Sequence record: NZ_MK262712.1
Length of the DNA: 64,000 bases
Source of the DNA: a plasmid
Reading direction: 5' to 3' (one strand)
A program made the translations under genes and the position numbers. The first letter of the stretch is position 1, and each line of letters starts with the position of its first letter. Positions 15,890 through 63,089 of this stretch are shown here, in pieces. Below the pieces are notes generated by a model. That model made no database searches and was not told the DNA's origin. It saw nothing but the letters and a program-made list of their open reading frames with translations.

Positions 15890-16103
15890 CGATAGTCTCG
15901 CAATCGTGCCCAGGGCAGCCCTTGACAGGTGAAAATTCAGGGCATTCTTGAGTAGTTATAAGTCGCTCACCGGCGTTAAAGCGTATTTGTAAGTCACTAC
16001 GTAAAGCTTCTGCATTCTCCCCCCCCAAAAGGTAGAGCAGAAACTCATCATCAGCCAAAAGTAACTTTTCCAGGTCATAGCACTCGTGTTTGTAGTCCAT
16101 CAT
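15882..16103 (-). CDS. Small hypothetical protein (73 aa).
   Basis: ORF only. It contains a palindrome copy at 16057. Confidence 0.3.
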   Translation of the reverse strand: MMDYKHECYDLEKLLLADDEFLLYLLGGENAEALRSDLQIRFNAGERLITTQECPEFSPVKGCPGHDCETIDE

Positions 16104-21835: not shown

Positions 21836-21862
21836 TAGGTAAAATTTAAATAAACGTATCAA

Positions 21863-25352: not shown

Positions 25353-25643
25353 TTACGCAGTTTATTTAGAAATTGGCGAAAGCCGTCGTTTATCACCCTG
25401 AAGCAACAAACCGCCTGAGTTTATACTTTTCTGGCATTAGAAAGTCCGTAGAAAGTTACTTTTTGAAAGCAATTTAACTACGAGTTGTGGTAAGACAGAT
25501 GTGAGTTATCGCACCAGCGCCATTCTTTTGGAAAGAGGCTCTGGTGTCGAAACTCAAAATTGAGCTACCCATTTATGGATATCTTAGAAGGTATAAAGGT
25601 ATTAAAAGTAAAACTATTGAGAAATTTATACATCAACCCTGTA

Positions 25644-33023: not shown

Positions 33024-33561
33024 TCACTAATGGTATATATAGTAAAGTTGCTCATTTACCCCCCTACACTGTATTGAGGGTAGCTGACCTCTATTAGATA
33101 CGTTGAATCTATGCCGAAAACGACGTCTCATGTTGAGTTTGAAAGTTGCATTAAATCGACTCCTGACAGTACTACTGGGAAAAGTAACTCTTCTAAAAAA
33201 GTTACTTTTTGGTAGTTTCTCCTCGAAGGTTTCGAGGCATGGTGTAAAGCACTTATGCCTCCTGGTAGAAGGTTCACTTTTTTCTCGCCATACAAACAAT
33301 TAACAACGCTGAGTATCTTTCTATGTCTTATCATCTTTTCAGCCCATTGGTGCAATCTATATATTTTCACATAGTTGAATTTTATTTCTTCCAAATAAGG
33401 GTAGGGAAAATCGAAAAAGTTGATTTTTTTTTGGACAGGTATATTTTCAACTTTAACGCCTGTTTTTGAGTTTGGTTACTCAGATGTCCAACCGAAAAAT
33501 AGTATCTTGCACGTGCATAATTTTATGAAATAATGATGGAAACAACCACTGGGGCATTTCA

Positions 33562-34460: not shown

Positions 34461-37400
34461 AATTAATTGAATTACCAGTTACAGGATCAACGTAGACAGA
34501 GCCTACCTCACATACACTTGGTCTCGGAAGGTATGAACAATCTACATTGTTGCCATTAATTGCCTGCACATTCTCTTCTCTCGCTTTGGTCATATTGATA
34601 CTACCCCCCATCGACTCCAGTGTTCGCTCCGAGGACAATTGCGCCTCGTTATTTTTATATGGACCCATATTAGCTACAGAACTCTCTGTGAATGCTGCGT
34701 ATTCATCCGGGACTTCCCCCGCGACAACTGCTGATTCAATATACTCAGTCATATCTATTTTATCCCAGTCAAGTTGCTGGACCTGTGAGATAGTTAATCC
34801 CACACAACCACTTTCTACAGGATTAATTCCCAATTGCGGATATGCCTGCTGCATTATTACCCTTGATAATAAAGAGTTATAACAGCACATGTCGGTTGCT
34901 TTTTTAATGCACTTCTTAGTGAAGCCAACGTTGAGATATTTAACGCAACGATCTGTATCAATAACAAAACATGCCCCTTGGTTTTTGTGAATTGACGCTT
35001 CCATCTCTTTTTGGTCACAAGCCAGAAGCATTTCGAGAAGCATTTTTGTGATTTGATAAGCAGTATATATCCAACCAACTATGTTTAAAGCTAACATAAA
35101 ATTCTGAACAGCACTTGAGAAAACTGCCTGTCCAAGTTGTGTGGTGGCCGTCTTATCAAACACAAAGTCCCTGATTGCATCGGGCAACATATCGTAAGCT
35201 TTATTCATCAACTGCTGTTTTATTGCAGCGAGACCGCCGGTCTGTAACCCATCTTTGGTGAGCTCTGTTGTAACAGCTGAACCTCCCCCTTCAACTGTTG
35301 AAGAGCCAATAAGTCTCGAGACGTTTCCTGCTATTGATTCATAAGCAGAAGTTAGTGGTTCAGTCACGCGTTGCCACATTTGGCCCACGCTTGAAGATAC
35401 ACCGGAGGTCCATTGTCCGACAGAGTTCGTCATCGATGCCCACGTACCTGACTCACCACCAGTCCAGGTTGTCAGCTTTGCTGATATTTTTTCCCAGTTT
35501 GTGTTTCTGAGCATTGTCCCGGCTAAGATAATTGCCTCTAGTTTTCCGGCTGCACCTTTAGGAGCTTCGCAGCAATCTGTTTTTGCCAACCCGTTTACAA
35601 AGCCTACAGAACGGCCACACCATTGCTTCTCTCCGGAGAAGACAATGCAACTATTGGGGTCGTTAGGGTCACTACACATAGCATCGCCCTGCATGTTCTG
35701 AACCATGCTGCTATAGGCTGCGACCTTACCGAAATCACTGTTTTGTTCATTCGCACCGGTATTACAAGTACCTCCTGAACATGGGATCATGCCTACGCAG
35801 GTGTTTGCTTCGTTTGTTACTGTCACAGTCCTTGTTATTCCTTCATCACAGGTCCACTTTTGTTCGTACATGTAACATTGATTAGTAGCAGAATCGAACC
35901 ATCCCTCAGCGCATGTTTGACTGGACATAGTGCATGCAGAGTTTGTAGAGTATTTTGAACATGCATCAGGCATATTCTTTATCTGGTCATAATTGTAACA
36001 AGCCTCATTGCCATTCTCATCTTTAAGAATATTTCCTGATGCATCATACTGACATAATTTTTCTTTCCCTAACGGATCGCAAAAATATCCTTCTAGATTA
36101 GTTTTCCAGGTTAAGTTACCTTGGTCTCCTTCATATAAAGGTGATGCATATTGCAATATCGATTGTGGTAAACGTTTAGTGCCTACATCAAGATCGGCAA
36201 AACGATCAAACCTGCAAAATGAACCTGTTTGTTTAACAACATCGTAGCAGCCAGGTGGGTCCTGTATATGTTTATCTTCAAGTTTGATATTTTCAAAAAT
36301 TAGTTCTACTTCAAAGTACCCTTCACCGTTACCCCCGACCCATACAGTAGATGACATTTCAACTTCGTGGTCACTTTCTTTGTACACGGATTCTGAAACT
36401 TGGCGCGTTATATCAATAGGTTCCTTTAATTTATTCGATTTATTTCTCTCCATGCCATTACGTGGTGGGCCATAACCAGGTTCGCGATATTCACCATCGA
36501 TATGAGCAAAAATCTGCTTGCCATCAAGATTAACTTGCATGTGGTCATCCCACTCAGCATTTACTATGCTTGCTGATTTTAAGATAGCGTCCTGGTGGAA
36601 ATGAAGCGTCATGCTATTGTCATAAACACCACCAGACCAGTAGTCATTACCACGCTTTCCGAACCAGATACGTATACAGTTATCGCCACATACGCTTAGG
36701 TCACCATTACCACCAGAGATGTAAACTGGTACACTGAAGTCACGTGTAATAGTGCAACTACCATAATTATCTTTTTTAGGTGCGTTACAGTAATATTCCT
36801 TATAATCAGGAATATGTTTTTCTTTTGTTGTAGTTGTGGTCTGTGTTGAACAGTTTTGCAACCATTGACCCGTACCAGCCGCTGCGTTTGCTATTTCATT
36901 TCTGCCACTTGTAAACATTGGGTCATTTGGCGAAATATTAGGGGCTGGATTGGATTTTGTTGCAGCCACCAGCGAACGATATGCTTGCCCATCATAACTA
37001 TTAGCAGTGAATAATTGACTCTTACGAGTTTTTATATCGTTAATGAATCCTTTCTCGTCACCATAACTATCACCAGCATTAAACTGAACATCAGCATTAT
37101 TTTGCTCTGAACTATACATTTCAGCTGTATTGGTACTAGTGATCGCGCCTCCAGGATTGGGGTTGTTACTTATAGATATACTTCCATCCTGGTTACGTGA
37201 AAGTAACTTTCCACCGTTTTCTGAACCTTTTATGTTTATATTATTACCGTTCATGTTGGGTAGCATTACCGTACCAGCGATGTCCGAACCATCAGTTTTG
37301 GCATAATTCAAAACATCATCATTTGTGAATGTTTTTCCACCATATTTCTTCAGGTCCATTGACGAACTGTTAGTACTATCAAAACCATTTATTTTGTCGG

Positions 37401-37653: not shown

Positions 37654-38691
37654 TTAACCAAGCCACCTTACGCAGCAATCGTTATAACGCCAAAGCATGT
37701 ATACATAGTTATTTACACCTATACGTTTTCGTCCGCCCTTCCGTGTCGACCAGTCATGAACAGAATCACCAAGTCTATGACAACATTCCGGTCCTTCTGC
37801 TTCCGGTACGGGATACAGCATCGATAGCCTGTACTGTGATCTAGGCATGAAATAACTGAACCTGCGTTCGCACATAGCGTCCTGGCCCATGGTTTTCATC
37901 AACATTCCTTGCCTGTGCAACTTGGTAATCATTCGTTGAGTTAATAATGAGGAAACCCGGACTGAATCGTCATTCGCAAAAACATGGCCGGTTAGCGGAT
38001 AGAGGTTACCATCACAACCTGCACAAAAGTGGGCACTCAGATTGTCAGCCCCAGCTGTAACCTTCACACAGTCAGCTGCGCACCACATTGAAGCAATAGG
38101 ATTTGCGAAAACAACTGCCTCAGGATTTAATACGAGTGTAAGCAGGTCATTTTCCCAGAGCGGATCAACTTCGCTAATGTAGGTAAGAGACGGGTCAATA
38201 TAAGGCTCAGCGGTACAATCCCCCATAATGAGGAGCTTAAGCATCACTAGGATCGGAAACTCCCATAAGTGAACATCATAAAACCCTGCCTCATTACCCC
38301 CTTTGGGCCTGTTAGTTGCTCCTTTCCCCATATCGAAGCTTGAAGACTGAAGACTAACCCCTTCAAGGAATGGCGAACACCATGGTGACTGTACAACCTC
38401 TACTATTTTTACTGGTTGGAAAAACGACAGTTGCCATCCTACCTCTGGGACCCCATTTTGATCTGTGCAATAACATACGGGTTGTGACGGTGCAGCCCCT
38501 TCTGGTGAGGAGCCTACTCCCATAATGCGCATTGGAAAAATACAGCTCCAACAGATGTTTTTAATCAAACCTTTCCAAACACCGGCCGATTGACAGATTC
38601 CGCTACCCGTCTCAGCCCCAATCGCCATTCCTGGTAAAGCCAGGCTGAGCATGACAGCAGTGAATGCTGACAAAAGTAACTTTCGTATCAT
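37654..38691 (-). CDS. traU: TraU, an F-type T4SS pilus-assembly protein.
   Basis: 345 aa. It shares several motifs with F-plasmid TraU as I recall it: ICWSCIFP, LNPEAVIFANPIA, LHRQGM, FCAGC…YP. Confidence 0.85.
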   Translation of the reverse strand: MIRKLLLSAFTAVMLSLALPGMAIGAETGSGICQSAGVWKGLIKNICWSCIFPMRIMGVGSSPEGAAPSQPVCYCTDQNGVPEVGWQLSFFQPVKIVEVVQSPWCSPFLEGVSLQSSSFDMGKGATNRPKGGNEAGFYDVHLWEFPILVMLKLLIMGDCTAEPYIDPSLTYISEVDPLWENDLLTLVLNPEAVVFANPIASMWCAADCVKVTAGADNLSAHFCAGCDGNLYPLTGHVFANDDSVRVSSLLTQRMITKLHRQGMLMKTMGQDAMCERRFSYFMPRSQYRLSMLYPVPEAEGPECCHRLGDSVHDWSTRKGGRKRIGVNNYVYMLWRYNDCCVRWLG

Positions 38692-40049
38692 TGAGCCGCC
38701 TCTTTTTCTGATTGCTGATTTATACGCGTATACTCGCGTACATCTGCCTGAGCAAACTGCTGTACTTTGAAGTAGGTTCCTTCAACCGATATGATTGTAG
38801 GGGTGGACTTAATCAGGAACCGGCTAATGATTTCAGGGTTGATCTTGTACATCTGCCCATAGAACTGGCCGCGCAACTCCTCTAAATGCTTCCAGCCATC
38901 ATCACGTTTGATTCGCGTAAAAATGGGCATAACTTTTCCTTCGCCGAAACGGTGACGAAACTGTATTTTGGCCCATGTCAGCTGCTCAGAATTCATTGGG
39001 TCAAAAACGATCATTGTCAGTTTCTGTGGAAATTGAGCAAGAGGATTTCCCTTCTGCCCTGCGGCAGCAATGAGGTTACCTTGGTTATCTCTAATATCTT
39101 GGTTTACCTGAATTGTTGGGTCGATATACCAGATTTTATTCTCGTCAGATACGGGAAGGGACGCCATCCACTGATTTTGCCAAGTTGATTTTATTGCGTT
39201 CTTTTTGGCCGCCTCCCAGTCATATTTATTACTTCTCTCCTCAAGTTCCTGTACAATACTTTTCTCTTTTATAGGGAATGTTTGGGCTGAAACCGGGAAG
39301 GTTGTTTTTTCTGGGTTTTCCTCGATCTGTTTCATGAAATACTTAATGTTAATCGACCCACTAATCTTGTAGGTTTTATCATCTTTTCTGTACACCATCG
39401 TTGGAACTTCTTTTACGCTATACTGGGTAAAACTTTCCGGATCGAGGGTGACTAAAGGTTCTTTTTTTATTTTTGCTTTAGATATATAATCACGCAGCAC
39501 TACCTGCATCTGAATAAGGTTTTCTACACCTTCCTTAAGCCCCCTGAACACCACGCGCGCATTGTTTTCCGATGCTGTTTTAATCAGGTCTATCAATACA
39601 TAGTCTGGCATGCTGAATGATGCAAATATTGTCAAGCCATTATCAGTCGATAGTTCTTCATTTTTGTTGTTATCTAATTTACGTTCGAAGTCCTGTGCAG
39701 TAATCCCCGACTTCCCAAACATTTTTTCAACGTTGGAAGACTGGGTTCGCATTGACTCGTTTTTTGACTTGTTAATTGTGTCTGCCTCTTCAGAGAAGGC
39801 CTCTGTAGACTGATTCTTTTTTATGTCCTGCGCAATATCACTCATCGCTTCCACTTCACGCAGCTTACCTGTGTGTTCTATCACCGCACGCACACTGTCG
39901 GAGACAGAGCTGGGATTGTACCGGGGTGTGCCGACAATCGACTCTATGCTTTGAGTCTTTGCATGATCAATAGAGTCATCGGCATATGACAGAGATGTAG
40001 CTAACAGGCAGCTAAAAAGTAACTTTTTAATACATTCAGAAGATGGCAT
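38688..40049 (-). CDS. traW: TraW/TrbC-family periplasmic pilus-assembly protein, possibly a TrbC-TraW fusion. The start is probably the internal MPSSE… with a signal peptide.
   Basis: Its position between the TraF-type peptidase gene and traU, the signal peptide, and its size are consistent with TrbC plus TraW. There is no strong motif. Confidence 0.5.
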   Translation of the reverse strand: MPSSECIKKLLFSCLLATSLSYADDSIDHAKTQSIESIVGTPRYNPSSVSDSVRAVIEHTGKLREVEAMSDIAQDIKKNQSTEAFSEEADTINKSKNESMRTQSSNVEKMFGKSGITAQDFERKLDNNKNEELSTDNGLTIFASFSMPDYVLIDLIKTASENNARVVFRGLKEGVENLIQMQVVLRDYISKAKIKKEPLVTLDPESFTQYSVKEVPTMVYRKDDKTYKISGSINIKYFMKQIEENPEKTTFPVSAQTFPIKEKSIVQELEERSNKYDWEAAKKNAIKSTWQNQWMASLPVSDENKIWYIDPTIQVNQDIRDNQGNLIAAAGQKGNPLAQFPQKLTMIVFDPMNSEQLTWAKIQFRHRFGEGKVMPIFTRIKRDDGWKHLEELRGQFYGQMYKINPEIISRFLIKSTPTIISVEGTYFKVQQFAQADVREYTRINQQSEKEAAQ

Positions 40050-40697: not shown

Positions 40698-43600
40698 TCA
40701 GTTATTCAACGTAATGAAACTTGTCGCTGAATCACCGCTGTCATCGTAAGCAGTTATAGACACCACCAGCTTACCCTTATTTTGAGCTTTGGACAGTGTT
40801 GCAGTACTTCCGAACACACCACGAACCTGATCATTCACCTTCCAAACATAACTGGAAATCTTGCCGTCAGGATCACTGCATTTTGCAGTAAATGCCCAGC
40901 TCAGTTGCGTTTCAGTGTATGTCAGGTTACATGTAGGAGGCGTGTTCGGTATCACGTCAAAATCAACCACAACAACCCCTCTCTGACCCTGCGTACTGAC
41001 AACGTCCATTTCCAGTTTATAACTACCTTCCATGATGTTCTCAAACGTCTGTGACCAGTAATTTTTGCCACCATCGACAGGCTTACCATTCAGCTTAAAC
41101 GTCACATTGTCAATTGAGTCTGCCGAGTGGGCCAGCTTAACACTGGACCTCAAGGACAGGTCCAGCGGGGCCCTCATGAACTTGTTAGAGTATTTGGGAG
41201 TAACGCTAATTTCCATCGGACTCTGTTCGTTCACGATAAAAGTGTAATCAACCCGGGCTTCATTGTTCCTGTTATCCTTCAGGACATACGTCAACGTATG
41301 TGTACCCGATTTTGTTACCTGGAACACTTTCGTCCCGTTATTGTCGCTGGACAGCGTCATCATATTTTTGTCGTATTGCCAGTCCTGGGTGAACACAACT
41401 CCAGGATAAGAAACATCCACACCAGAGACTGATACGGTGAGTTCCGAAGGTATCATGGTGTATTTCAGTTTTGTATTCAGGCGTGGCTCCGGGAATTTGT
41501 ATACCCAAGATTTTACGCTGATTTTCCGTTTTGCTATGGTTCTGTCTTTTGCCTCCGGCATGTAGGCCTGATACGTAAACGTTGCATACCCACGTTCATC
41601 TAACATGTCTTCGGTCAGGACGGTATCAAGCAGCCCCCCCTGTTTTACGCTTCCATCAGGGAGCACCCACTCCTGGACAACTTTAGCATCAGATGAGTAC
41701 TCGATATTAGGGTTCGTGTAGGTACCCTGCAAAGTAACTTTTTTACCTACCTCTACCTGCGAGTTCCCCTCAACCTTAACCGACAATTTCTTATGCTTAA
41801 TGACAGTGACACGAGCACGAGTTTCTTTCCATGCCGATTTCCCGGCCATTTCGTCGGTTTCGGTATACCGTACTTTTGCAAAGATATACTTGGGCACCTC
41901 CGAGGACGTAATCATGTATTTAACCCCCCCCTCAGTCCATTCCTCTCCATCCTCTGACCACTGGACTTCAACTGCACTACCTTGTACATCTTCATTGTTA
42001 TCAGTCAGTGTCACCGGGATGCTGTGCCCCTCAAGAACCTTTCCAACCGAGATAACAGGTTTAGGTTCCCGGTAAGCAACCACCGTGAGATTATCGGTAT
42101 ATGAGACCTTACCTGTGTATTTGTTGGTCAGTTTGGCGCGGTAAAGCCACTTACCTACTTCTTTTTGTTTGATGCTTACGCTTCGAAGTCCGGTCATATC
42201 TTCAAGCGTATTCCAGGTTGATCCATTGTTACTGGACATCTGCCATTCAGTTGGACTCAGGGAATCATAATCATCGGTACTTTTCGTTCTGAATGAGACC
42301 ATTGCTGACAGAGGAACTCGGCCTACAATAAGCGATTTAGACAGCCCACCTTCGAGGTTGGCCCCTTTATACACCCTGATACTTGTTGTTGATGTCTCAC
42401 GTTTGAGTACAAAATCTTTAAACGGACTGCGTACCGTAGCTACTGCGATGATGCGGTGACTACCCAGAGTCAGATCGTCCATGTTGAGCTCACCGGTCGC
42501 AATCCCCTCAGAGTTAACGGGCAGATCACCGGTCAGAGGAGTTCGCTCAGTTACCGAAACATCTTTACCGGTTTCTTCATCCGTAACCCATTTAGAGGTA
42601 ACTTTGTAAACCACCACATCCCACTGCCCCATTGTGGAGGCATCGTACAATGTACAGTTACAGCTGTTATTCCATTGGCCGATGTTTACCGATACCGGTA
42701 CTTTCAAACTCGTTGCTGATTTACGCTCTGCAACTTTCATATAGGCACGAATACTGAAGTTTGGAACAGTATAAACTTTGAGCACACTGGATGACTTTAT
42801 ACTGGCTTCATTTTCGTAGGAAGCTTCGATGTTTACATTCGTTTGCGTCCACAATGGCGCTGCAGGTACTTTTATACGCTCAGAATAAGTTACCGGCGTA
42901 TCACCACCTGATTTATTCTTGTAGGTTTTAGTTTCAGCGTCCTGGCCTTCAACCTTAGTTGTAAGGACAACGTTAGCCGGTACTGATTTTGCAAGCACCT
43001 TAGCTGCGTCCCCACCAGTGATATAAACCAGTGCTGTATCCTTACCAAGAGTCTCTACCGTTTTACTCATCTTGTATGAAATTTCAGGTGCAAACGGTTC
43101 AACGGCTTTAACGGTTTTACGGTTATGAGTGGCAATGGCTTTAGAGCCTTTTGTATTAATCACATAGACGTTGTAGTCAAGGACGTTATCGCCAACTTTA
43201 GAGAAGTAACCCGTCAGGCCAGGAACTTTAGACTTCGAGTAAAATTCGAGACCAGATGGAACGTTGTTCCACTGAACATAACAGGCCGTTCCATAAACCG
43301 CAGTTCCGAACTGGCTAAGAAACGCCTGAGCGTCTTCTTCAGTAGAGAAAATCTTACAGGTATTCCCTGATTGCTGAGTAACCAGCGAAGTGTAAGGACG
43401 GACGTAACCGTAAATCGTAGACGCTGATTCGATGGACTTCAGAGTGAAAGTCATCGGCATATAGGTAAAATCGATTGAATAGGTTTTGGATATACCGTTA
43501 ACATTCTCAGCAACAACCGTCAAAGTATGGACTTTGTTTGTTTCGAGTGACGGCATCGGCTTTAACCGGTAGATCCCTTTGACGTTTGTGGGAGTGTATG

Positions 43601-44939
43601 AAGCCATGACGTTATCAATGACAACGCTCTTGATGTCGGCAACACCCTCTTCGCCCTGGAATGCAGCAATAACGATCTCATTCAGGAAGTACACCTGGTC
43701 CCGCTTAACAAGCTCTGAGCCGTCCTTGAAAACGGAAACAGATGGTTCATCAGACAGTATAAGTTTAGATTCCGGTTCGGTATAACTGGAATCATTGCCC
43801 GCTGTATTAGACACAGAATATGTTGCAACGTAAGAAGCGCTGGCCAGATCGCTTATATCAAAAAAATAAACAAATTTACCCGCAACTTCCTGATATCCGG
43901 CGACAGGTTGAAGAGTTCGACGGGACGGAGTTGACCAAATTTTGTTAAAATTAAGCTCCGTACCATCATCTAAAGTAACTTTTGTCATTGGAGAGAAGCT
44001 ACCATCAGGAGCAAGTGTGAGCGACATTGCAGCAGGTTTCCACCAGTCATTGGTATCTGACCGGGCAGGAACCGAGACAGCTACAGCGATCGTCTGCGGA
44101 GCAACGTAGATATCTTTATCTCCGATCTTGAATGACCGAGCTTCTTTAGAGACGTTCCAGAAGGTATTGTCTATCGCTGGAGCGCGGTAATCCCAGCTTA
44201 ATCTCACCTTAGAGGTTACTGGTGGGGAGAAGTAATTATTGAACGAGTTTAAGGTTACGCCTACATCCCTGCTTCCGAAATCGGAACCCCCATCACTGAT
44301 GCCTACGCTTCCGGTCGTTATAGAACATTTTGAGGCTCCTGCAGCAATGGCGCAGGATGTCCCAGAACCGACAGACGCGACCATATCGTAGTCTCGGGGT
44401 TCAACGGTTATATCAATATTTGAGAGTGTCTCGTTTTTAATGTATGACGTCAGTGTTGAACCGGAAGAACCGTTGCTCATTGAACCTTTTATAGAAGTAA
44501 TCACAGGAGCTACAGGCGCAACAGTCTTGAAGTTGTACTCCCCTTCCTTGACTATGACTTTTTCACGTTCTGAGCCCGAGTAGTAAACGATTTGCCATGG
44601 AAGTTTGATATCCCCAGCTATGGCAGGGATGCCCTTCAGTGAGAACCCATTAGCAATCGGCATACCGGAATTATTAGGTAACCATTCAAACACACATTTC
44701 AGGCTACCAGCCGTACTTTTGACATTAGGATCAGAGGACACCTCGCATCCCTCAGATACCGGAATAGCTGTAACCGTACTTTCTTTCACGAAGGCCGTAT
44801 TTACTTGTGAACTGGTAGAAAATTTGACATCTGGTAATGACGTTTCCAGGGTACCGGAAACCATTATCGATTCTGCGTTTGAAAAAGCACTGAACACAGA
44901 ACAGAACATCAGGAAAGAGATTTTATTAATTTTAGTCAT
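40698..44939 (-). CDS. Very large (1413 aa) secreted protein, beta-rich and Ser/Thr/Val-rich, with a signal peptide and no predicted TM helices. It is a candidate surface adhesin or aggregation factor embedded in the T4SS operon.
   Basis: N-terminus MTKINKISFLMFCSVFSAFSNA|ES. The composition resembles tandem Ig-like domains. It carries 3 palindrome copies internally. Confidence 0.55.
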   Translation of the reverse strand: MTKINKISFLMFCSVFSAFSNAESIMVSGTLETSLPDVKFSTSSQVNTAFVKESTVTAIPVSEGCEVSSDPNVKSTAGSLKCVFEWLPNNSGMPIANGFSLKGIPAIAGDIKLPWQIVYYSGSEREKVIVKEGEYNFKTVAPVAPVITSIKGSMSNGSSGSTLTSYIKNETLSNIDITVEPRDYDMVASVGSGTSCAIAAGASKCSITTGSVGISDGGSDFGSRDVGVTLNSFNNYFSPPVTSKVRLSWDYRAPAIDNTFWNVSKEARSFKIGDKDIYVAPQTIAVAVSVPARSDTNDWWKPAAMSLTLAPDGSFSPMTKVTLDDGTELNFNKIWSTPSRRTLQPVAGYQEVAGKFVYFFDISDLASASYVATYSVSNTAGNDSSYTEPESKLILSDEPSVSVFKDGSELVKRDQVYFLNEIVIAAFQGEEGVADIKSVVIDNVMASYTPTNVKGIYRLKPMPSLETNKVHTLTVVAENVNGISKTYSIDFTYMPMTFTLKSIESASTIYGYVRPYTSLVTQQSGNTCKIFSTEEDAQAFLSQFGTAVYGTACYVQWNNVPSGLEFYSKSKVPGLTGYFSKVGDNVLDYNVYVINTKGSKAIATHNRKTVKAVEPFAPEISYKMSKTVETLGKDTALVYITGGDAAKVLAKSVPANVVLTTKVEGQDAETKTYKNKSGGDTPVTYSERIKVPAAPLWTQTNVNIEASYENEASIKSSSVLKVYTVPNFSIRAYMKVAERKSATSLKVPVSVNIGQWNNSCNCTLYDASTMGQWDVVVYKVTSKWVTDEETGKDVSVTERTPLTGDLPVNSEGIATGELNMDDLTLGSHRIIAVATVRSPFKDFVLKRETSTTSIRVYKGANLEGGLSKSLIVGRVPLSAMVSFRTKSTDDYDSLSPTEWQMSSNNGSTWNTLEDMTGLRSVSIKQKEVGKWLYRAKLTNKYTGKVSYTDNLTVVAYREPKPVISVGKVLEGHSIPVTLTDNNEDVQGSAVEVQWSEDGEEWTEGGVKYMITSSEVPKYIFAKVRYTETDEMAGKSAWKETRARVTVIKHKKLSVKVEGNSQVEVGKKVTLQGTYTNPNIEYSSDAKVVQEWVLPDGSVKQGGLLDTVLTEDMLDERGYATFTYQAYMPEAKDRTIAKRKISVKSWVYKFPEPRLNTKLKYTMIPSELTVSVSGVDVSYPGVVFTQDWQYDKNMMTLSSDNNGTKVFQVTKSGTHTLTYVLKDNRNNEARVDYTFIVNEQSPMEISVTPKYSNKFMRAPLDLSLRSSVKLAHSADSIDNVTFKLNGKPVDGGKNYWSQTFENIMEGSYKLEMDVVSTQGQRGVVVVDFDVIPNTPPTCNLTYTETQLSWAFTAKCSDPDGKISSYVWKVNDQVRGVFGSTATLSKAQNKGKLVVSITAYDDSGDSATSFITLNN

Positions 44940-45066
44940 GGAACGCTCTGATCGTAGTTATGCCATAGTTACATCTAATGTATCCTATGAACAGAGCGTA
45001 TTTTTCCCATTAAGGGAAGTATCTTCATTGAAATTCCCGTAAAACGGGAATGGCTGGACAGAAAAG

Positions 45067-45606
45067 TTACTTTTGTAGTTGAGCATTTGCATTAAGACGC
45101 ATGCACGTTAGAACCGCGTCAGATGGAACCCCTGGATTTCGGGCCAGTATGACGGATAAGAGGAAAAGACCTAAGCGAAGGCAGGCGGCAGGATCAATAC
45201 TAATTTTATGTATAAAGTTAATGTCTCGCTCGTCTTTGTTGATAGCTACAACGCCCCCCTCCAACATTGCTGTGGATTTACCATCAAAAGTAACTTTTAC
45301 GTTTTTGTAGACTTGCTTATTATGGTGCTTTGTTTTTTTATCTTTCAGAACAGCCTCACGAGTAAGGCGAAGAAACGCCATACACAAAGCGATCACTTCA
45401 TCATCACTCAGCTTTGTTGAAAAGGCCTTTTGCCCAGTCCAGTCAAACGCGCCCGGCTTAGATGCTAAAGGCCCAGCAAGGATAAGATTCACACTGCCAT
45501 TTGTCTCAGAATAATTGAGCTCAAGTGCAGTCTTGCCGGAATTAAATACCTTTTCATTTCGGTAAGGTTGATGCTGTGGAACATCATTATTTATATTTTC
45601 CACCAA
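45067..45606 (-). CDS. Hypothetical protein (179 aa).
   Basis: ORF. Palindrome copies at 45063 and 45287. Confidence 0.4.
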   Translation of the reverse strand: MVENINNDVPQHQPYRNEKVFNSGKTALELNYSETNGSVNLILAGPLASKPGAFDWTGQKAFSTKLSDDEVIALCMAFLRLTREAVLKDKKTKHHNKQVYKNVKVTFDGKSTAMLEGGVVAINKDERDINFIHKISIDPAACLRLGLFLLSVILARNPGVPSDAVLTCMRLNANAQLQK

Positions 45607-46428: not shown

Positions 46429-47111
46429 CTGTAGTTACTCATGTGCTTTGATGGATAGTGTGTCGCTAAAAATCATACCAAAAACAAAGTATTCCTACCT
46501 CAGCCAGAGTGAGAAAAAGTTAACTTTCGCTCTGAACCTGTAGGTTTATCTAATCTTAGCTTAACATGTAAGCTACCGATATCTGCACCGCTCATAATTC
46601 TAAGGGCTCGTATTATTCACTTGTTGAACTAGATCATCAATCGAAAGGAACACATTACAACGCGCCAAAAGTTACTTTTATCAGAATGCACACAATTTAG
46701 CTCGAATAAGAATCTGGATTGTGATTTGGTAACAGGATCTTTAACTTTAGCAATCAGAGTATGCCTTGCTTTTACATTGCAGTATCACCATTTAAAACAA
46801 TAAGTTATAACGAAACACCAAGTGTTTGATAACATGCATTTTCACTGGATCTGCGCTTACGAATGTGGCACTGAGGCAATTCTTTAACCTTGTAAAGAAT
46901 GAGTGAGCCCGCGCTGGAGGTCAGACCTTTGGTTGCATTTAAACCACGTGTGTTACATGCCTACATGGGAATGATTCTCATCAACTATTAAAAAGTCACT
47001 TTTACATAAATCTAACAATGTACTGAAAAAAAATATTGTAAAAATAGCTTTTTTCCTCTCTGGCGACGTCATCACATCCCTCATAAATGTATGATCACAC
47101 AGAGGTGATAA

Positions 47112-53031: not shown

Positions 53032-53889
53032 TTATTTGTTAAAGGGATTTTTAAGCAAAGGTTGTAAATTCAGTTTTAACCAGTTTTTATAATCAGTCGG
53101 TAATCCATTGCCCAACACTCCATCTTCACGAACTACAGATGGGATGCCTTGAACGTTATAAATGGATGCCAGGTATAGACCTGTAACAATAGGTTCTACT
53201 GAACAATCTTTCAGATTTTCATGAGGAATAAGCCGGTTGTTTATATCTTCTGATTTTCCTAATAACGACTGAAGAATATCATAATTGGTAATTTTACCAG
53301 CTTTAACAGAGCACCACATTTGTTTTACCCGTTTAGCTGATTCGCCAGGGCTGGGTAAAATAACAATATCAAAGCGAACAAGTTCCCTTTCTTCATTCAT
53401 CTTTTTCAGAAAGTCAATACAATCTTGACAATCAAGAGAAATGAATATAACTGCCTGTCGTTTGAGGGACGGATTCCCGAACTGGATAGTAAAGGCATCC
53501 TCAGGTTTGAACGGTGCTTCGTTCAATGGTAAAAAGTAACTTTCTCGGATATCTGATATCGATTGAACTTGTTTTTTCCTGAGAACATCATAAACTTTAC
53601 CTTCTGAAAAAGAGTAGCGACCCGTTGTGGTAACTAGGGTGAGGCCACTTCGCTGATCCTCAAATAAAAAAATCCCACCCGTCGGTAAGTAGACAGCATC
53701 CTTTGGCTGGTAAGGACTAAGCTTGCTAACTAATCCCCTTGACGACTGATTTAAAGCGAGACCATTTTCAGCAGCAGCGCGTGTTAACGCCGCAGCTTCT
53801 GCATCATACTTATCAGCTGCAGCAGAATGAGTTGAATTGAGTAGTGCTATACACACGAGCAACTTGATAAGTAACTTTCTCATAATCAC
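53032..53889 (-). CDS. trbB: Periplasmic thiol:disulfide interchange protein of the DsbC/TrbB type.
   Basis: Signal peptide and a thioredoxin CxxC motif (SLDCQDCIDF). Confidence 0.6.
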   Translation of the reverse strand: MIMRKLLIKLLVCIALLNSTHSAAADKYDAEAAALTRAAAENGLALNQSSRGLVSKLSPYQPKDAVYLPTGGIFLFEDQRSGLTLVTTTGRYSFSEGKVYDVLRKKQVQSISDIRESYFLPLNEAPFKPEDAFTIQFGNPSLKRQAVIFISLDCQDCIDFLKKMNEERELVRFDIVILPSPGESAKRVKQMWCSVKAGKITNYDILQSLLGKSEDINNRLIPHENLKDCSVEPIVTGLYLASIYNVQGIPSVVREDGVLGNGLPTDYKNWLKLNLQPLLKNPFNK

Positions 53890-55723: not shown

Positions 55724-56201
55724 TATATTGACCTTTATTACTTGGTGGTAAATATCTCTTTACCCTCAATGACCTGACCTTTTCATCTATCTGCGGTACA
55801 GAGTAAGGAGGCTCAGCCCGTAAATTTTTGAAAACGTTATTTTCGAGTTGCTCATAGAACTGACTATCACTATCCAGTTCAATGTGAGGCAACTCTATTG
55901 CCTGTTCATTGGTTTTCTGATCAAGTGTGGTGATGCTTTTTTCATCAAAACTTTCATCCGGTTTTGAATCAAAGCTACCCTTTCGAGTGAAATCCTTATC
56001 AGATAGCAATTTGTCAGAGTCATATACCTTAAAATCATCAAAGCCAGGGGGCGCTGATTCTTGCACTGTATATTCCGATGGCACAATTTGAACTATCGCG
56101 GTGCGTTCCTTTGCTAAATTCCCTATAAAAAACCCCATCCCTAGACCGACACTGAACAAAATGCCCCAAGTGAAAATTGAAAAGTTACTTTTTTTTGTCA
56201 T
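55683..56201 (-). CDS. Membrane-anchored hypothetical T4SS-associated protein (172 aa) lying between traK and traB.
   Basis: N-terminal TM segment. Palindrome copy at 56181, at its start codon region. Confidence 0.35.
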   Translation of the reverse strand: MTKKSNFSIFTWGILFSVGLGMGFFIGNLAKERTAIVQIVPSEYTVQESAPPGFDDFKVYDSDKLLSDKDFTRKGSFDSKPDESFDEKSITTLDQKTNEQAIELPHIELDSDSQFYEQLENNVFKNLRAEPPYSVPQIDEKVRSLRVKRYLPPSNKGQYNENFEAEGIVGRK

Positions 56202-57368: not shown

Positions 57369-58229
57369 TTATTGAGCTTCTGCTTCGTTCAGTTGCTTGT
57401 TCATATCGGTATTTTCAGTGAACTCTTTTTCCAATACCTTCCCGTTAACTGTGACTTTTTTGATATTAGGGGTCCCTGAATACTGGTTCAGATACAGTAT
57501 TCGAGGTCGCCCACTTTTCACACTCAAAACCATCTCGTAAGTCCAACGCTCAGTTTGTTCCTTATCAGAGACGTTTAGGAATTTAGTTTTGCGAGTACCC
57601 CATACATAAAGAACATTATCACTGGGTAAAAAGTTGACGTCCTCTGCAACAAATGTTTGATCAACCTTTCTTGCAAGCATTAAATCCGAGGCTTTTTTGA
57701 GTTCTGCTTCTAACTCGCTCTGTTTAGATGCCGGAAACATCTTAAGAATATAACTGGTAACGAAAGTAACATTTTTAGGGTTAATGTTCCCCAATGTGGT
57801 TGCTATAAATAGCCCCCATTGCGTCTTATATGACTCACTTGCCTTACTTCCGGCTACGGAAACTTCCTCAGTCATATCCGGAGGGATGGCAATGACCTCA
57901 GTTGTGGAAAAAAAGACCACTTTAATTACCAAAAGGCCAGCAATCACCGTCAATAATCCATTGTTTAAGATTAATTTTTTGTCACGCTGAATTAACTGAC
58001 TGTAGGTAAGTTCAGCACCCGTTTTCTTCCCTTTTTTAGGAGGCTCGAGTTCTTTTGACAAATTCAGGATGGACTTATGACGCTGAATTTTATCATTGCT
58101 GTAACTTTCAGTTTTTTCATACTGGACGTCGTCAGCCTCATCATCCTTTGATTTATCAACTGTCTTCTTCTTCGGTACAAACCTGAAGAAGTTCATGACG
58201 TTTTCTAAAAGTGACTTTTTCTCGTTCAT
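57369..58229 (-). CDS. traE: TraE (VirB8-like) bitopic inner-membrane T4SS protein.
   Basis: A single TM segment after a charged N-terminus. Gene order is pilin-traL-traE-traK-traB. Confidence 0.5.
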   Translation of the reverse strand: MNEKKSLLENVMNFFRFVPKKKTVDKSKDDEADDVQYEKTESYSNDKIQRHKSILNLSKELEPPKKGKKTGAELTYSQLIQRDKKLILNNGLLTVIAGLLVIKVVFFSTTEVIAIPPDMTEEVSVAGSKASESYKTQWGLFIATTLGNINPKNVTFVTSYILKMFPASKQSELEAELKKASDLMLARKVDQTFVAEDVNFLPSDNVLYVWGTRKTKFLNVSDKEQTERWTYEMVLSVKSGRPRILYLNQYSGTPNIKKVTVNGKVLEKEFTENTDMNKQLNEAEAQ

Positions 58230-58651: not shown

Positions 58652-59074
58652 TTAAAGCACAACACCCGCATCAAGGAATCCGGTGATGATTTTTTCGCCG
58701 TTAGCCAAAATCATCATCATAAGGAATGAAACGAGTGCCAAACCCGGGTTCGGACGGCCGATGGAGAAGTAGAATGCAGAGATCAGCATACATGCGGCCA
58801 GGGCCTTCCCGGGCGCGCCACTTAAAGCTTCTGAAAGTTGGGTCCAAATTTCACCCAAGGCTCCGTCATCCCCGCCCGCCAAAGCAATAGATGAGAACAA
58901 CGCAGCGCACAACAGCGCAATAAATACCTGGAACATTTTATTGCTAAGCATATTACGCAGGCTTTCAGCCAGAGTGTAGTTAGCAGTAGTGCCGCTCATA
59001 GCCATTGATTTCTGGATCATTGTGAAACTCCTGAATGCGAATATTGTATATGTGTTCTGGTGACTAACCAGCAA
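58652..59074 (-). CDS. traA: F-type propilin (TraA/TrhA-like). An alternative start is at 59020 (MIQKS…).
   Basis: A long leader, then two hydrophobic helices (…VFIALLCAALFSSIALAGG…, …LALVSFLMMMILANG…). It is the first gene of the T4SS operon. Confidence 0.55.
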   Translation of the reverse strand: MLVSHQNTYTIFAFRSFTMIQKSMAMSGTTANYTLAESLRNMLSNKMFQVFIALLCAALFSSIALAGGDDGALGEIWTQLSEALSGAPGKALAACMLISAFYFSIGRPNPGLALVSFLMMMILANGEKIITGFLDAGVVL

Positions 59075-59835
59075 TTGGAGAATACCCTGGGTTAATTTTT
59101 GATTTTCAAACTAAGGAACAAATTTTTTAAACAAAAAAGAGAAAACGCTGAAGTTATAAAAGTTACTTTTCAATGAGTTTTTTTCTTATCGACATGTCAT
59201 TATCAATTAGTTACAAAATTCGCCCTGTTTCATTCATTTCACTTTGCCAAAGAAAACATATTGATTTTAAAGTAGATTTTGACAACCTCTTTTCTCCCGT
59301 AATCCTTTTTATCCTCCTGTACATTCTTGGTTTCTTCGAAAAAGTCACTTTTTTGTCCATGCAAACACTGTTTTTGCGATCATAAAAGTAACTTTTGGAC
59401 CTGATAAATTACGATGTCCTTTAAAAAAGTGACTATTGGTCACCATCTTAATGTTCACTTCTTGAGCAAGGACAACCAGGGAGTTGAGAAAAGTCACTTT
59501 TTGGCTGTGATACAGTTCAGGTGTTAATTTTCCCCTTCCAGCTTAACTACCATAATTAGTGGGTCATCAAAAGAGGCGCACAGATCCTCCAAAAATGGTC
59601 CTAGAATGTAGAGAAAATGGAGAAATTTTGAATAATTTGTAACCCACATAACATATTGATCTTTAATAGTTTAATGTTATTTTTGGAATAATTATCTAAA
59701 TGACTACGGTTACACATAGCACTTTGGAACATAATCAGCTATAGAAGATAAAACTTATGCTTTTACCCTCTTCCCATGGGCCATTTCTAAATGTAAATTT
59801 AGGAGAATTCTTATGTTTGTCATGAAAGGAATATC

Positions 59836-60150
59836 ATGAAAAGTCGGATGGTAGAGGTCGCTGGGTTAAATCTTAAAATTACCATACATAACAACATGTT
59901 AGCTTTGAGTTATAATATTGACGGGCTCAGTATTTACAATTCAAGTCGTATTATTCGCAACTCAAAACTAACCGAATCTGAGATTTTCGCAAGAATTGAC
60001 GCTGATTTGGTTAGCAAAGTTTTTTCTGTAAATATCAAGCAGATAAACAACATCGTACACTCTAATGTCTGCGTAATACCTATACAGACTCAAGCTAAAC
60101 AGGTTAACTTTGCGGCTGGAGTAATGGCGTCTTGTTTCAAGAATTTCTGA
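59836..60150 (+). CDS. Hypothetical protein (104 aa).
   Basis: ORF only. Confidence 0.3.
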   Translation: MKSRMVEVAGLNLKITIHNNMLALSYNIDGLSIYNSSRIIRNSKLTESEIFARIDADLVSKVFSVNIKQINNIVHSNVCVIPIQTQAKQVNFAAGVMASCFKNF

Positions 60151-60294
60151 TTAATAGTCTAGATACCATAGGGATAATCGGAAGTATTATCGCTCCCCTG
60201 CTCGTGATGTCAGCTGGTTCTGGTGACATAAAAATACCCCCTTACCTAGCGATCTTTTCCTGATAGGATAGGAATATTTGTGAGGGGGGTAAAT

Positions 60295-60963
60295 ATGTGG
60301 GTCACAAAAGATAATGAAATTATCTCAGATGCTGAACCGGATTCAGACGGTTTTATGGAAGTTCGCCGTCCATGCCCTGACTGTTTAGGTTCAGGTATAA
60401 ACTGCCTCCAGTGTGCGGGTTCTGGCTCATTGCCGGCTGTTATGGAAAAAGTATATCCTGTGTACGAGTGGGCTTCTAAAAACTCTCTACAGATGCCATT
60501 TAAATCACCTGAACAAGCACTTATTAAAAGCTTTCTTAAAGTTATTTTAGAGGCACCCAATCAGGGTAAAAGTAATTTTTACTCAGCACTCATCCAAAAA
60601 TTGGATAAAAGTTACTTTCCTACAAAGTTACAATTTCGATGTCTGAAACCTAATGGATATAGAAAAAGTTCAGCAGTCAGCCTTCAAGTACGGCCCTTTA
60701 CTGCCAAAATCGGTACCAAACTGTATCTGGCTCTCACCGTAATTAAAATTCAGGTGCTCACCAGAAAATGTTCTTCTGAGAGTTTTTCATCTTTACTTTT
60801 GGAGACCTCTGACCACCGGCATTTTATTGCTTATGATACGCACCCATCAGGGTTTATTCTTGGTAATATAATTAATTGCAATGTCCAAGTTGTTAAACGA
60901 CTCTGGGTTAATAATATGAGTATATTGCTGGTGAAAATGATTTCATCTTCTCTGATTAAGTGA
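60295..60963 (+). CDS. Hypothetical protein with a DnaJ-type CxxCxGxG zinc-finger pair.
   Basis: …CPDCLGSGINCLQCAGSGS…. Confidence 0.4.
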   Translation: MWVTKDNEIISDAEPDSDGFMEVRRPCPDCLGSGINCLQCAGSGSLPAVMEKVYPVYEWASKNSLQMPFKSPEQALIKSFLKVILEAPNQGKSNFYSALIQKLDKSYFPTKLQFRCLKPNGYRKSSAVSLQVRPFTAKIGTKLYLALTVIKIQVLTRKCSSESFSSLLLETSDHRHFIAYDTHPSGFILGNIINCNVQVVKRLWVNNMSILLVKMISSSLIK

Positions 60964-61018
60964 CAGTGGTTACCAAACACAAGTTATAAGTCTTTTAAAG
61001 AGGCAATACTTACTCGTT

Positions 61019-61783
61019 ATGAATAGTCATAAGAATTACAAAGAGTTAGGGTTATTGCAGGATTTTTTTAGAAAAAACCATAAAGCTACCTTTAATTGTG
61101 ATCAAAATAAAGTTGAGATCACCTCTAGTGATATCACTCCACTTCTTGTTAAAGGTAAAAGTAACTTTCAACAGGCTAAGTTTTGTTTATCCGGACCGGT
61201 GATGCATTTACGGTATCAACCTTTATGGTTTGCTATTTTGCTGGGACTGAACGCTAGACAACCAATCCATCAAGAACTTCAGTTCAGTATTTCACTTGTT
61301 GAACTTATAGAAAAATCGGGACGTGTTTGTCAGGCACTCGGAATCAGGCAAGTCAACTATACACTTGCTGAAGTTTCTTACTTTTTGTTGCTACTCATAG
61401 AGTTCAGAATCGAGATACAAAAAAGTAATATCTGTCAGACCTGTTCGGTTTTTACAGAAATCAGTCACGATATAGATTTTCAGTCTATCAGCATGGCTAG
61501 TGTTACTATCAATCCTAGAGTGGTTGACAAACTTTGGGAACTGACTAATTCGGCGTCAGTTTTTTTGACAACTCTCTTTTTTGCCAAGCGCCCGGAACTA
61601 TACAGCCTACTGCAAAAGTTACTTTCAAAAACTGAAGAGGTTTCCCTTAGCGACATTGCTCCTGCAACGTTTCAACACGTACAGTTGTTATGCCGTCATG
61701 GCCTCGTCACCTACACTAAAAAGCATAAAATACTTGATATTCATAGTGTTAGTGTTTTAATTGAAGGCCTCCACCCATTGTAA
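61019..61783 (+). CDS. Hypothetical protein (254 aa).
   Basis: ORF. Two palindrome copies inside. Confidence 0.4.
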   Translation: MNSHKNYKELGLLQDFFRKNHKATFNCDQNKVEITSSDITPLLVKGKSNFQQAKFCLSGPVMHLRYQPLWFAILLGLNARQPIHQELQFSISLVELIEKSGRVCQALGIRQVNYTLAEVSYFLLLLIEFRIEIQKSNICQTCSVFTEISHDIDFQSISMASVTINPRVVDKLWELTNSASVFLTTLFFAKRPELYSLLQKLLSKTEEVSLSDIAPATFQHVQLLCRHGLVTYTKKHKILDIHSVSVLIEGLHPL

Positions 61784-61910
61784 ACAACCAGTAAAAGTAA
61801 CTTTCATAAAAAATTTACCAAACTGGCTTTTTTGACCACATAGCGAGAAACTTTTACAAAATAATACTGTACAGTCTAATTTCAGGAATGGTTCAGTCAT
61901 AGGTAAGAAA

Positions 61911-63089
61911 ATGAAACAAACAGCTGACTTTTTTATCTCTACAGAGCGGAACGGGAGGCTAGTCAAAAATTTGCGTGAATTTAGTGACGCAAATCCTGAC
62001 ATTTGCCACAAAGCGGTTAATGGCCAACCGTTTATGATCGACCCAAGGGCATTAGTGTTAGTTCCAAACTGGAACTGCCGTGAGATGGGTCTGGGAGAGG
62101 CATACTACAAATTACCTAAACCTGCCGAGCATATTCAGAATCTTAAAAAAGCATTTCTGAATGGGGCAGACATTGACCCTATAACTGTCGTTATTGTTGA
62201 CGGTAAACCACTGGTTCGACAGGGGAACTGTCGTACAAGAGCTGCGCTTTTGGCTCAACAAGAATCAGGTCTCCCCATCCTAGTTAGATTGCGTGAGTTC
62301 CAGGGTGACGAGATAGAACAAGAATGGCATTCTCTGGATGGGGCGAAATCTCTCCCCCTTTGCCCCGTAGGTCGCGGCATTGCCTATAGCAGACTGGTAA
62401 ATGATGCCGGGATGTCTGTTGAGCAGGTTGCACAACGGGAAAACATTTCTGAAATGGCAGTTCGCCAAATCATTTCTCTTGCAACCATCGATGACGAATT
62501 AAAGACGTTGATTAGTCAGGATGTTATTTCGTACACACTCTGTCTTGAATTAATTCGTGATCTTGGTGAAAAGGAAGCTCTTGATAAAATTCGGGCCGAC
62601 CTAAACGCCAAGATAATGGTTATTAATAGTTCCACCGGGAGTGATACCCTTCCTCTGAATGTTGCCGAAATAATTAAGTCTCATGGTAGTCCTAAGGCTG
62701 TCAGGGTCACTAAATCTTCACTGGGAGTGCAACCAATTCCTCGTAAACTGGCACAAAATCTCGCAGCCAGTACTAAAGAGGTTTGCAACAGATTACGAGC
62801 CTCCCTTCCCTCTTCGTTTGATCTCAATCAGATTGGACCCAACGAAAAAATAAATATTGAAGTTGACAGACATCTAATTGAACTTATATTTAATTCAGAT
62901 GACTCTATTCGTGGCCATGAAGCTAAGCTCGAGCGTAAAACAACAAAGGGAAAACTTTCTAGTTCTGCCCCATCAGTAACATCAGAGGTAAACTCTAATG
63001 CGCTGCCAGCTAATGATCCTATGGAGGAGCCCGCTTCAGAAAGTCAGGAAAATGAATTTTCGCTATTGAATTTACATTCCGCAGTTTGA
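61911..63089 (+). CDS. ParB/Srx-fold (ParB N-terminal domain) protein. It is possibly a KorB/ParB-like DNA-binding protein.
   Basis: …DGKPLVRQGNCRTRAALLA… resembles the ParB GxxRxxA arginine box. 392 aa. Confidence 0.5.
   Translation: MKQTADFFISTERNGRLVKNLREFSDANPDICHKAVNGQPFMIDPRALVLVPNWNCREMGLGEAYYKLPKPAEHIQNLKKAFLNGADIDPITVVIVDGKPLVRQGNCRTRAALLAQQESGLPILVRLREFQGDEIEQEWHSLDGAKSLPLCPVGRGIAYSRLVNDAGMSVEQVAQRENISEMAVRQIISLATIDDELKTLISQDVISYTLCLELIRDLGEKEALDKIRADLNAKIMVINSSTGSDTLPLNVAEIIKSHGSPKAVRVTKSSLGVQPIPRKLAQNLAASTKEVCNRLRASLPSSFDLNQIGPNEKINIEVDRHLIELIFNSDDSIRGHEAKLERKTTKGKLSSSAPSVTSEVNSNALPANDPMEEPASESQENEFSLLNLHSAV

Follow-up and report, generated by a model that had tools for sequence, protein, structure and literature searches.

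A conserved palindrome scattered over the backbone of IncHI-type plasmids and arrayed upstream of the pilin gene trhA, with two orphan ParB-like proteins as candidate readers

Strong purifying selection on the DNA itself maintains a 13-bp palindrome with the consensus RAAAGT-N-ACTTTY throughout the IncHI-type plasmid backbone, and four exact copies and one decayed copy of it lie in the intergenic DNA that precedes the pilin gene trhA. We give a probability of about one half to the reading, built on analogy with ParB-like systems of other mobile elements, that the palindrome is read by one or both of two orphan ParB/KorB paralogues as a control layer spanning the backbone. Such a layer seems to be previously undescribed, and a full-text literature search for the motif and for IncHI ParB-like proteins or R0042 returned no description of the palindrome.

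Abundance and conservation of the palindrome

The window, as we call the whole 64,000-nucleotide stretch of sequence record NZ_MK262712.1 that was analysed, is collinear with the Klebsiella plasmid NZ_CP055011.1 (100% identity over the 3-kb stretch compared), which is typed as IncFIB/IncHI1B of the pNDM-MAR lineage, with a MOBH relaxase and MPF_F mating-pair formation; the whole 274-kb plasmid was reassembled for a plasmid-wide count of the palindrome. The window contains 31 exact cores, whereas 100 dinucleotide shuffles predict 0.19 and never gave more than 1, and the entire plasmid carries 88 exact copies and only 33 one-mismatch variants. The copies are spread over the backbone at a median spacing of 1.6 kb, and none falls in the resistance and transposon islands, the plasmid's accessory DNA of about 75 kb. 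The 13-mer is the full consensus, the sequence beyond +/-6 being random.

Coding sequences hold 22 of the 31 window copies (71%), and the intragenic sites are distributed over the three reading frames (6, 6, and 9 sites), which argues that selection acts on the DNA and not on the protein. Intergenic DNA in the window is enriched 2.4-fold in sites (p=0.008). Across relatives, core identity compares with flank identity as 98.3% to 78.2% inside genes and as 89% to 57% in intergenic DNA. The motif is also the top 5-N-5 palindrome in every IncHI-type locus that we fetched, down to 27-37% protein identity, a set comprising IncHI1/R27, IncHI2, the two lineages that are 79% and 74% identical, Photorhabdus and Buttiauxella contigs, and two remoter IncHI-like contigs; in the IncC and Pseudomonas MOBH plasmid loci that we examined, RAAAGT-N-ACTTTY does not occur. 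MOB-suite types the lineages at 79% and 74% identity as IncU. When metagenomes were scanned for paired sites, tandem repeats and satellites made up most of the matches, and only one IncHI-like contig was among them. The folding energy of the sites (0 to -1.9 kcal/mol) is no better than that of shuffles, and this lack of folding, together with the abundance and conservation of the motif, predicts a double-stranded-DNA binding site for a symmetric dimer. Tus/Ter, restriction-modification, uptake, and Chi-like sites were set aside in view of the perfect two-fold symmetry, enrichment instead of avoidance, and backbone-only spread.

The trhA/orf104 intergenic region and the other sites of the window

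Two sets of transfer genes lie on the minus strand of the window: the genes at 58652-49523 are the AC operon of IncHI (trhA, trhL, trhE, trhK, htdO, trhB, htdT, trhV, and trhC) and those at 46428-34459 the AN operon (htdA-, htdF-, and htdK-like genes, an Ig-like gene, trhP, trhW, trhU, and trhN), with operon and gene names taken from the R27 literature (PMC7366339). The first gene of the AC (trhA-trhC) T4SS operon, an annotated coding sequence at 58652..59020 on the minus strand, encodes a trhA-like pilin whose match to NCBIfam TraA_gammapb (E=3.4e-6) is below the cut-off and whose identity is also backed by synteny with trhA-trhL-trhE of R27. Divergent from it is orf104, a conserved 104-amino-acid open reading frame on the plus strand (59836..60150) that is unannotated in the window and annotated in the relative L004, with its start and ribosome-binding site kept in the aligned relatives. 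This frame is possibly the first gene of a putative plus-strand unit that ends in the gene for one of the candidate readers, ParB-like-1. The starts of trhA (59020) and orf104 (59836) flank a divergent intergenic region of 815 bp, where an earlier note on this DNA had described a 450-bp leader.

Four palindromes that the note had placed in this region, at 59159, 59341, 59385, and 59490, are all exact copies of RAAAGT-N-ACTTTY, with the 11-bp core AAAGTNACTTT at 59159-59169, 59341-59351, 59385-59395, and 59490-59500. Together with the decayed copy they form five sites, separated from centre to centre by 182, 44, 41, and 64 bp. Site 1 (AAAAGTTACTTTT, 59158..59170), centred 144 bp upstream of the trhA ATG, is kept in L004 and L005 and has one mismatch in L003, and site 2 (AAAAGTCACTTTT, 59340..59352) is identical in L003, degenerate in L004, and displaced in L005, while site 3 (AAAAGTAACTTTT, 59384..59396) and site 5 (AAAAGTCACTTTT, 59489..59501) are kept in four of four aligned plasmids. 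Site 4 (AAAAGTGACTATT, 59425..59437) is a 13-mer with one mismatch whose orthologue is perfect in L004 and L005, so that what had been taken for a variant is a decayed site; the second palindrome said to enclose it, GTGAC-TATTG-GTCAC at 59428-59442, is present in the window but is lineage-specific and not kept in relatives. On the minus strand this second palindrome folds into a -10 kcal/mol hairpin with a U-run after it.

In an alignment of the leader with relatives that are 85, 79, and 74% identical, the flanks fall to 7-78% identity and the five sites persist as conserved islands. Given the overall density of sites, the clustering itself has a probability of 0.03 for at least four sites in 350 bp (0.06 counting intergenic DNA alone). 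For the trhA-leader array, conservation is therefore a stronger argument than clustering, which is modestly significant. Promoter and terminator scans of this region and of the intergenic region at 46430-47110 gave nothing above shuffle expectation; the sole promoter candidate, a -35/-10 pair around site 3, was rejected as not conserved. Rfam returned a single weak sub-threshold match, to STnc320 (E=0.086).

The region at 46430-47110 had been credited with three further copies, and two of them are exact and conserved. The copy at 46668 (site 46667..46679), in the htdA/Z divergent region, precedes the htdA-like ATG by 245 bp and is kept in four of four plasmids, and that at 46992 (site 46991..47003), kept in three of four, precedes the leading gene (47112) of a plus-strand unit by 115 bp. 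The third, at 46506, is no site: it reads AAAGT-TA-ACTTT, the two arms being separated by 2 nt, and relatives do not keep it as a palindrome. Both tra intergenic regions do carry conserved copies, as the note held, and the palindromes behave as selected double-stranded-DNA binding sites; those upstream of trhA may affect its transcription. The view of them as an operator array specific to tra genes has to be given up, given that the 88 copies lie plasmid-wide near replication, oriT/mobI, CRISPR-Cas, helicase, and tra genes.

The remaining sites of the window are exact unless stated otherwise. In the AC operon, one covers codons 4-8 of trhE (58207..58219; core 10/10 in L003-L005), one the beginning of the htdO-like gene, where it joins traK (56180..56192), and one lies inside the htdT/dsbC-like gene (53532..53544). 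Those in the AN operon fall within the htdK-like gene (45286..45298), over its stop codon and 129 bp upstream of the Ig-like (R0009-like) gene (45062..45074), twice within the Ig-like gene (43971..43983 and 41730..41742), at the start of trhW, of the TrbC family (40015..40027), in codons 3-7 of trhU (38672..38684), and within traN (37199..37211). Further along are a pair of sites 17 bp apart in an unannotated stretch (33180..33209; one of the two with one mismatch), a site in a small minus-strand open reading frame (32205..32217), two inside a helicase gene (26553..26565 and 26235..26247), an intergenic site 147 bp upstream of the gene at 24324-25310 (25451..25463), one at the 3' end of a DUF3150 gene and 91 bp upstream of the next gene (20712..20724), intragenic sites at 19162..19174, 16336..16348, and 7391..7403, a site near the start of a small gene (16057..16069), and one inside a Tus-like gene (13360..13372). 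Beyond orf104 on the plus strand, a hypothetical gene (60295..60963) contains a site at 60607-60619 whose core is 10/10 in L003-L005, the hypothetical gene after it (61019..61783) contains exact sites at 61157-61169 and 61614-61626, and a last site (61793..61805), 117 bp upstream of the start of ParB-like-1, is a candidate autoregulatory site.

Candidate readers and rival readings

ParB-like-1, a candidate reader of 392 amino acids encoded on the plus strand at 61911..63089, is annotated as "DNA-binding protein". Alone, it scores 22.2 bits against Pfam HTH_ParB, just under the 22.6 cut-off, and a PDB sequence search with a shallow profile of it gave no match. A family profile built from 68 relatives matches structures of Spo0J, ParB, Noc, and KorB in the PDB, with E values from 8e-19 (Spo0J) to 2.5e-7, and among the 68 relatives 57 match HTH_ParB and four the KorB domain. 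Its AlphaFold2 model reaches a pLDDT of 88 with the 68-sequence alignment (a shallow alignment gave 49.5), and the top Foldseek matches of this model in the PDB are all ParB, Noc, or KorB, with probability 1.00. The GxxR motif is invariant in the 68 sequences (G105 and R108). Box II reads G-(N/H)-C-R instead of GERR and box III (ENLQR) has diverged, and these departures make CTP binding by ParB-like-1 uncertain. As modelled, the product of 61911-63089 is a member of the ParB/Noc/KorB superfamily, with a predicted N-terminal ParB/Srx domain and GxxR motif and then a helix-turn-helix. A second paralogue, ParB-like-2 (413 amino acids, record 20986-22227 of NZ_CP055011.1, outside the window), was found through a distant homologue look-up and matches the family profile at E=5e-77, without a Pfam match. 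No ParA gene adjoins either paralogue.

The two densest palindrome clusters of the plasmid, at scales of 0.5, 1, and 3 kb, lie directly upstream of these two genes: six sites in 750 bp precede ParB-like-2, and eight exact sites and one decayed site, at window positions 59159-61794 and beginning with the trhA leader array, precede ParB-like-1. In 12 of 13 loci, the ParB-like-1 orthologue is preceded by a site at a distance of 95-178 bp; in IncHI1 and IncHI2, no dense site cluster adjoins the ParB-like gene. By gene order, the R27 orthologue of ParB-like-1 is R0042, which is listed as a "partition protein", strongly expressed, and co-induced with tra genes and in an htdA mutant (PMC7366339). Neither this palindrome nor another obviously scattered one accompanies the remoter ParB-like homologues (22-28% identity), which sit in phage-like settings or on other plasmids, and the "DNA-binding proteins" beside tus in IncC and Pseudomonas plasmids were discarded as KfrA-like, not ParB-like. 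The plasmid's own partition ParB was likewise rejected as reader: it is P1-type (Pfam PF08775), on either side of its parAB genes stands not the palindrome but a 66-bp direct repeat, in about 29 copies, that is presumably its own centromere, and a single copy of the palindrome occurs some 600 bp downstream of parB.

In the mechanism that we propose, a two-fold-symmetric, plasmid-encoded protein would bind the palindrome as a double-stranded-DNA site, ParB-like-1 and/or ParB-like-2 being the most likely binders of AAAAGTNACTTTT. Dimers would nucleate at the ~88 sites, by analogy with KorB-OB, ParB-parS of IncC, BisD-bisS, and VirB-virS, and may close as nucleotide-dependent clamps and spread, as the invariant GxxR suggests, the outcome being one control layer over the entire backbone. 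The five-site trhA/orf104 array would be a main nucleation platform and, because it occupies the divergent control region of the AC operon and the ParB-like-1 unit, would set the output of the former and autoregulate the reader. The direction could be either repression, as with KorB, or anti-silencing and activation against H-NS, as with VirB and BisD. A bolder and distinctly tentative proposal is that IncHI megaplasmids (R27, R478-like, and pNDM-MAR-like) possess an unrecognised clamp of the ParB-CTPase type, with two orphans and ~90 invariant loading sites, which would supply the physical link behind the as yet unexplained H-NS- and HtdA-dependent thermoregulated backbone regulon and act as an anti-silencer or long-range silencer that coordinates transfer, replication, and defence genes from arrays like that of trhA.

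Some of the evidence sits less easily with ParB-like readers. The recognition helix of the helix-turn-helix varies among IncHI orthologues and between the two paralogues and the DNA motif is invariant, so reading by these proteins requires specificity outside the recognition helix. Khare et al. are said to have located the specificity of KorB outside its recognition helix in 2004, via Thr211 and Arg240. Many other uncharacterised backbone proteins are common to every IncHI plasmid, and co-occurrence with the motif thus does not single out the ParB-like proteins. An unlikely alternative is that the reader is another sequence-specific dimer, be it one of the uncharacterised IncHI backbone proteins or a host factor conserved among enterobacteria. 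It would accommodate the variable helices and a motif that stays the same while the ParB-like proteins are down to 27-37% identical and the hosts range from Klebsiella to Photorhabdus, and most backbone open reading frames lack a family assignment. However, no alternative candidate was found, the two densest clusters adjoin the two ParB-like genes, and the motif's absence from accessory DNA and from IncC and Pseudomonas MOBH loci in comparable hosts argues against a general host site.

The sites could also be bound by the ParB-like proteins to a structural end, such as compaction, Noc-like tethering to the membrane or T4SS, or DNA marking, in which case the trhA cluster would be a loading hub with no direct promoter role. 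Scattered palindromes are used by Noc and chromosomal ParB, and the spread of sites over the whole backbone at 1.6-kb median spacing, most of them intragenic, is what such a role would suggest. We consider it improbable, however: sites are enriched in intergenic DNA, their positions are kept in several divergent intergenic regions beside operon starts, and the plasmid has, besides, a P1-type parAB system with 66-bp repeats proper to it.

It is improbable, too, that the palindrome is the cis element of the TrhR/TrhY-HtdA circuit, bound by the activator pair or by HtdA at tra promoters and elsewhere. This circuit activates the F, H, AC, and Z operons, and the reach of HtdA extends over most of the R27 backbone, an htdA mutation derepressing 139 of 181 expressed genes and sparing the transposon, tet, cit, and parAB (PMC7366339). 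This pattern resembles the backbone-only distribution of the motif, and the AC, Z/AN, and H/R operons have sites in the intergenic DNA ahead of them. Upstream of trhF, however, there is no site with up to one mismatch in this plasmid (366 bp), IncHI1, or IncHI2 (~600 bp each), a test that covers the intergenic region, from which the R27 reporter fragment may differ in extent. The F-operon promoter is the canonical reporter that is activated by TrhR/TrhY and repressed by HtdA, and the lack of a site in its intergenic region makes this circuit an unlikely reader and the palindrome probably a separate layer. A perfect palindrome also suits a homodimer better than a two-protein activator, 71% of the window sites are intragenic, and the TrhR-, TrhY-, and HtdA-like open reading frames have no recognisable DNA-binding domain; Pfam and NCBIfam searches with these frames and other cluster-adjoining ones gave no matches. 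Finally, the idea that the copies are RNA or single-stranded-DNA hairpins, terminators, a REP/MITE-like mobile repeat, or an artefact of chance or composition, which a palindromic, A+T-rich motif in an A+T-rich backbone might invite, is effectively refuted by folding no better than in shuffles, random flanks without a larger repeat unit, the excess of observed over expected copies, and orthologous positions kept in relatives.

Significance and comparison with known systems

Resistance to carbapenems, colistin, and tigecycline has major carriers in the IncHI1B/FIB (pNDM-MAR-type), IncHI1, and IncHI2 plasmids, as have hybrid virulence traits, and the whole-plasmid regulation of IncHI-type plasmids is poorly understood. 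An invariant 13-bp site with two candidate readers offers a testable handle on the coupling between expression of the pilus and T4SS and the remainder of the plasmid, and a palindrome system of this kind could explain why an htdA mutation derepresses most R27 genes. The palindrome could also serve as a conserved target for blocking transfer, or for decoy and incompatibility tricks in the style of SGI1 versus IncC. Scattered palindromes with ParB-like readers may be general in MOBH megaplasmids, with IncC as a verified case and the Pseudomonas plasmid that we examined carrying a scattered palindrome of its own.

Of the two analogies proposed earlier, KorB is the closest known precedent, but the promoter-proximal TraJ/TraY model does not fit a set of sites that is 71% intragenic. 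Unlike F-like TraJ/TraY sites, the sites here are not confined to the main tra promoter and lie near rep, oriT, CRISPR-Cas, and helicase genes. KorB of the IncP-1 plasmids RK2/RP4 acts at 12 OB operators, each a 13-bp palindrome with 6-1-6 symmetry (PMC11790492, PMC13584720). Our motif shares this length and symmetry (TTTAGCSGCTAAA versus RAAAGTNACTTTY), is likewise found in many copies over the backbone, near gene starts, far off, or inside genes, and has a candidate reader of the ParB/KorB fold with a site upstream of its own gene. It differs in the number of sites (~88 here, 12 for OB), in having two paralogues and no KorA/TrbA partner that we could find, and in that KorB is also the centromere-binding ParB partner of an adjacent ParA, the protein IncC, whereas the candidate readers are orphans apart from the partition system.

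A second precedent comes from a related MOBH/MPF_F plasmid group with a scattered backbone palindrome. In IncC/IncA plasmids, ParB has 12-14 experimentally verified inverted repeats (core TTTCACATGTGAAA) scattered in the conserved backbone, some of these parS copies adjoin tra promoters regulated by AcaCD, and the reader is a ParB with a KorB domain (PMC10954446). The palindrome count that we used recovered TTTCACATGTGAAA blindly as the top palindrome of the IncC locus. The motif here is a different sequence with a copy number about six times higher, and whereas the IncC reader is the partition ParB of the parAB053 operon, the partition ParB of our plasmid is P1-type with 66-bp repeats.

Orphan ParB-like proteins with a GxxR motif are also known on other mobile elements, and BisD and VirB are both palindrome-loaded, carry this nucleotide-binding motif, and act at a distance on transfer or virulence promoters (PMC12409273; bioRxiv 10.1101/2023.06.01.543266). 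BisD of ICEclc loads at two bisS sites and depends on BisC and on an additional activator domain (PMC12409273), and VirB of Shigella pINV has few virS sites, all upstream of specific promoters, and counteracts H-NS (bioRxiv 10.1101/2023.06.01.543266), the protein that silences tra genes in IncHI (PMC7366339). Unlike either, our plasmid has dozens of sites, mostly inside genes. The TrhR/TrhY-HtdA circuit involves the same operons (AC, Z, H, and F) and has a global effect on the backbone, with no cis element reported in that work (PMC7366339). Judged by these analogies, the array is most likely a putative variant of KorB-OB or IncC-parS-type scattered operators, and it differs from its precedents in combining orphan candidate readers apart from partition, two paralogues, and ~90 sites that are mostly intragenic.

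Palindrome copies at gene starts and junctions

Four intragenic copies of the palindrome RAAAGT-N-ACTTTY, a putative protein-binding site, lie near the starts of T4SS genes (window positions 38673, 40016, 56181, and 58208), within codons 3-12 of membrane or secreted proteins. There the motif translates as K-(K)-L-L or K-S-L-L in the N-region of the signal peptide, which may be a cheap location for embedding a DNA site. A copy at the trhF/trhH gene junction has kept its position across IncHI1 and IncHI2 plasmids (11021 in both L034 and L035) and NZ_CP055011.1, the plasmid matching the window, where it is present as two copies 17 bp apart (59152/59169). Another pair with 17-bp spacing, one copy carrying a mismatch, occupies window 33180-33209, within a 900-bp stretch that has no annotated gene and is flanked by small minus-strand ORFs and a gene at 33562.

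Elements of the intergenic regions

Upstream of the htdA-like gene, the 36-bp block ATAGGTTTATCTAATCTTAGCTTAACATGTAAGCTACC (window 46540-46578) varies at only three positions in an alignment of four plasmids that are 74-85% identical elsewhere. It contains the inverted repeat AGCTTA-N5-TAAGCT, lies about 115-150 bp before the htdA-like start, and has the appearance of an operator or promoter element in its own right.

Divergent from trhA, a conserved 104-aa ORF on the plus strand (59836-60150), whose RBS is also conserved, is annotated in the aligned relative L004 and unannotated in the matching RefSeq record; a family search with it gave no match. In the intergenic region between this ORF and trhA, on the minus strand, a decayed palindrome copy (site 4) and a downstream GTCAC pair into a -10 kcal/mol hairpin (z=-3.2; 59418-59452) followed by a U-run. 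Hairpin and U-run look like a terminator directed at trhA; the hairpin is restricted to the lineage of the window plasmid.

Repeats beside ParB-like and partition genes outside the window

The plasmid's densest palindrome cluster, six sites in 750 bp, lies upstream of a second orphan ParB-like paralogue (cluster and gene, NZ_CP055011.1 20123-22227, L024). This 413-aa protein is not detected by Pfam, and type IV-A CRISPR-Cas genes follow its gene immediately downstream. Shortly past the window end, a P1-type parA-parB pair is flanked by a 66-bp direct repeat with the core AAAACAACCCCGTTGTTCGCAGTC, present in about 29 copies (L001 23836-26081 and 28961-29116); these copies are probably the true partition centromere.

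Palindromes and repeats on other plasmids

A Pseudomonas aeruginosa plasmid (NZ_OX638702.1, 126560-167552; L037) has its own scattered palindrome, GTCCCAG-N-CTGGGAC, at 9-11 copies per 41 kb, and scattered palindromes may be common among MOBH/MPF_F megaplasmids. R27 (L038) carries 43-bp direct repeats between trhA and RepHIA (12841-12969), every one of which holds AAAAGGCACTTTT, the motif with a single mismatch; these repeats are possibly iterons, similar to the RAAAGT-N-ACTTTY site or descended from it.
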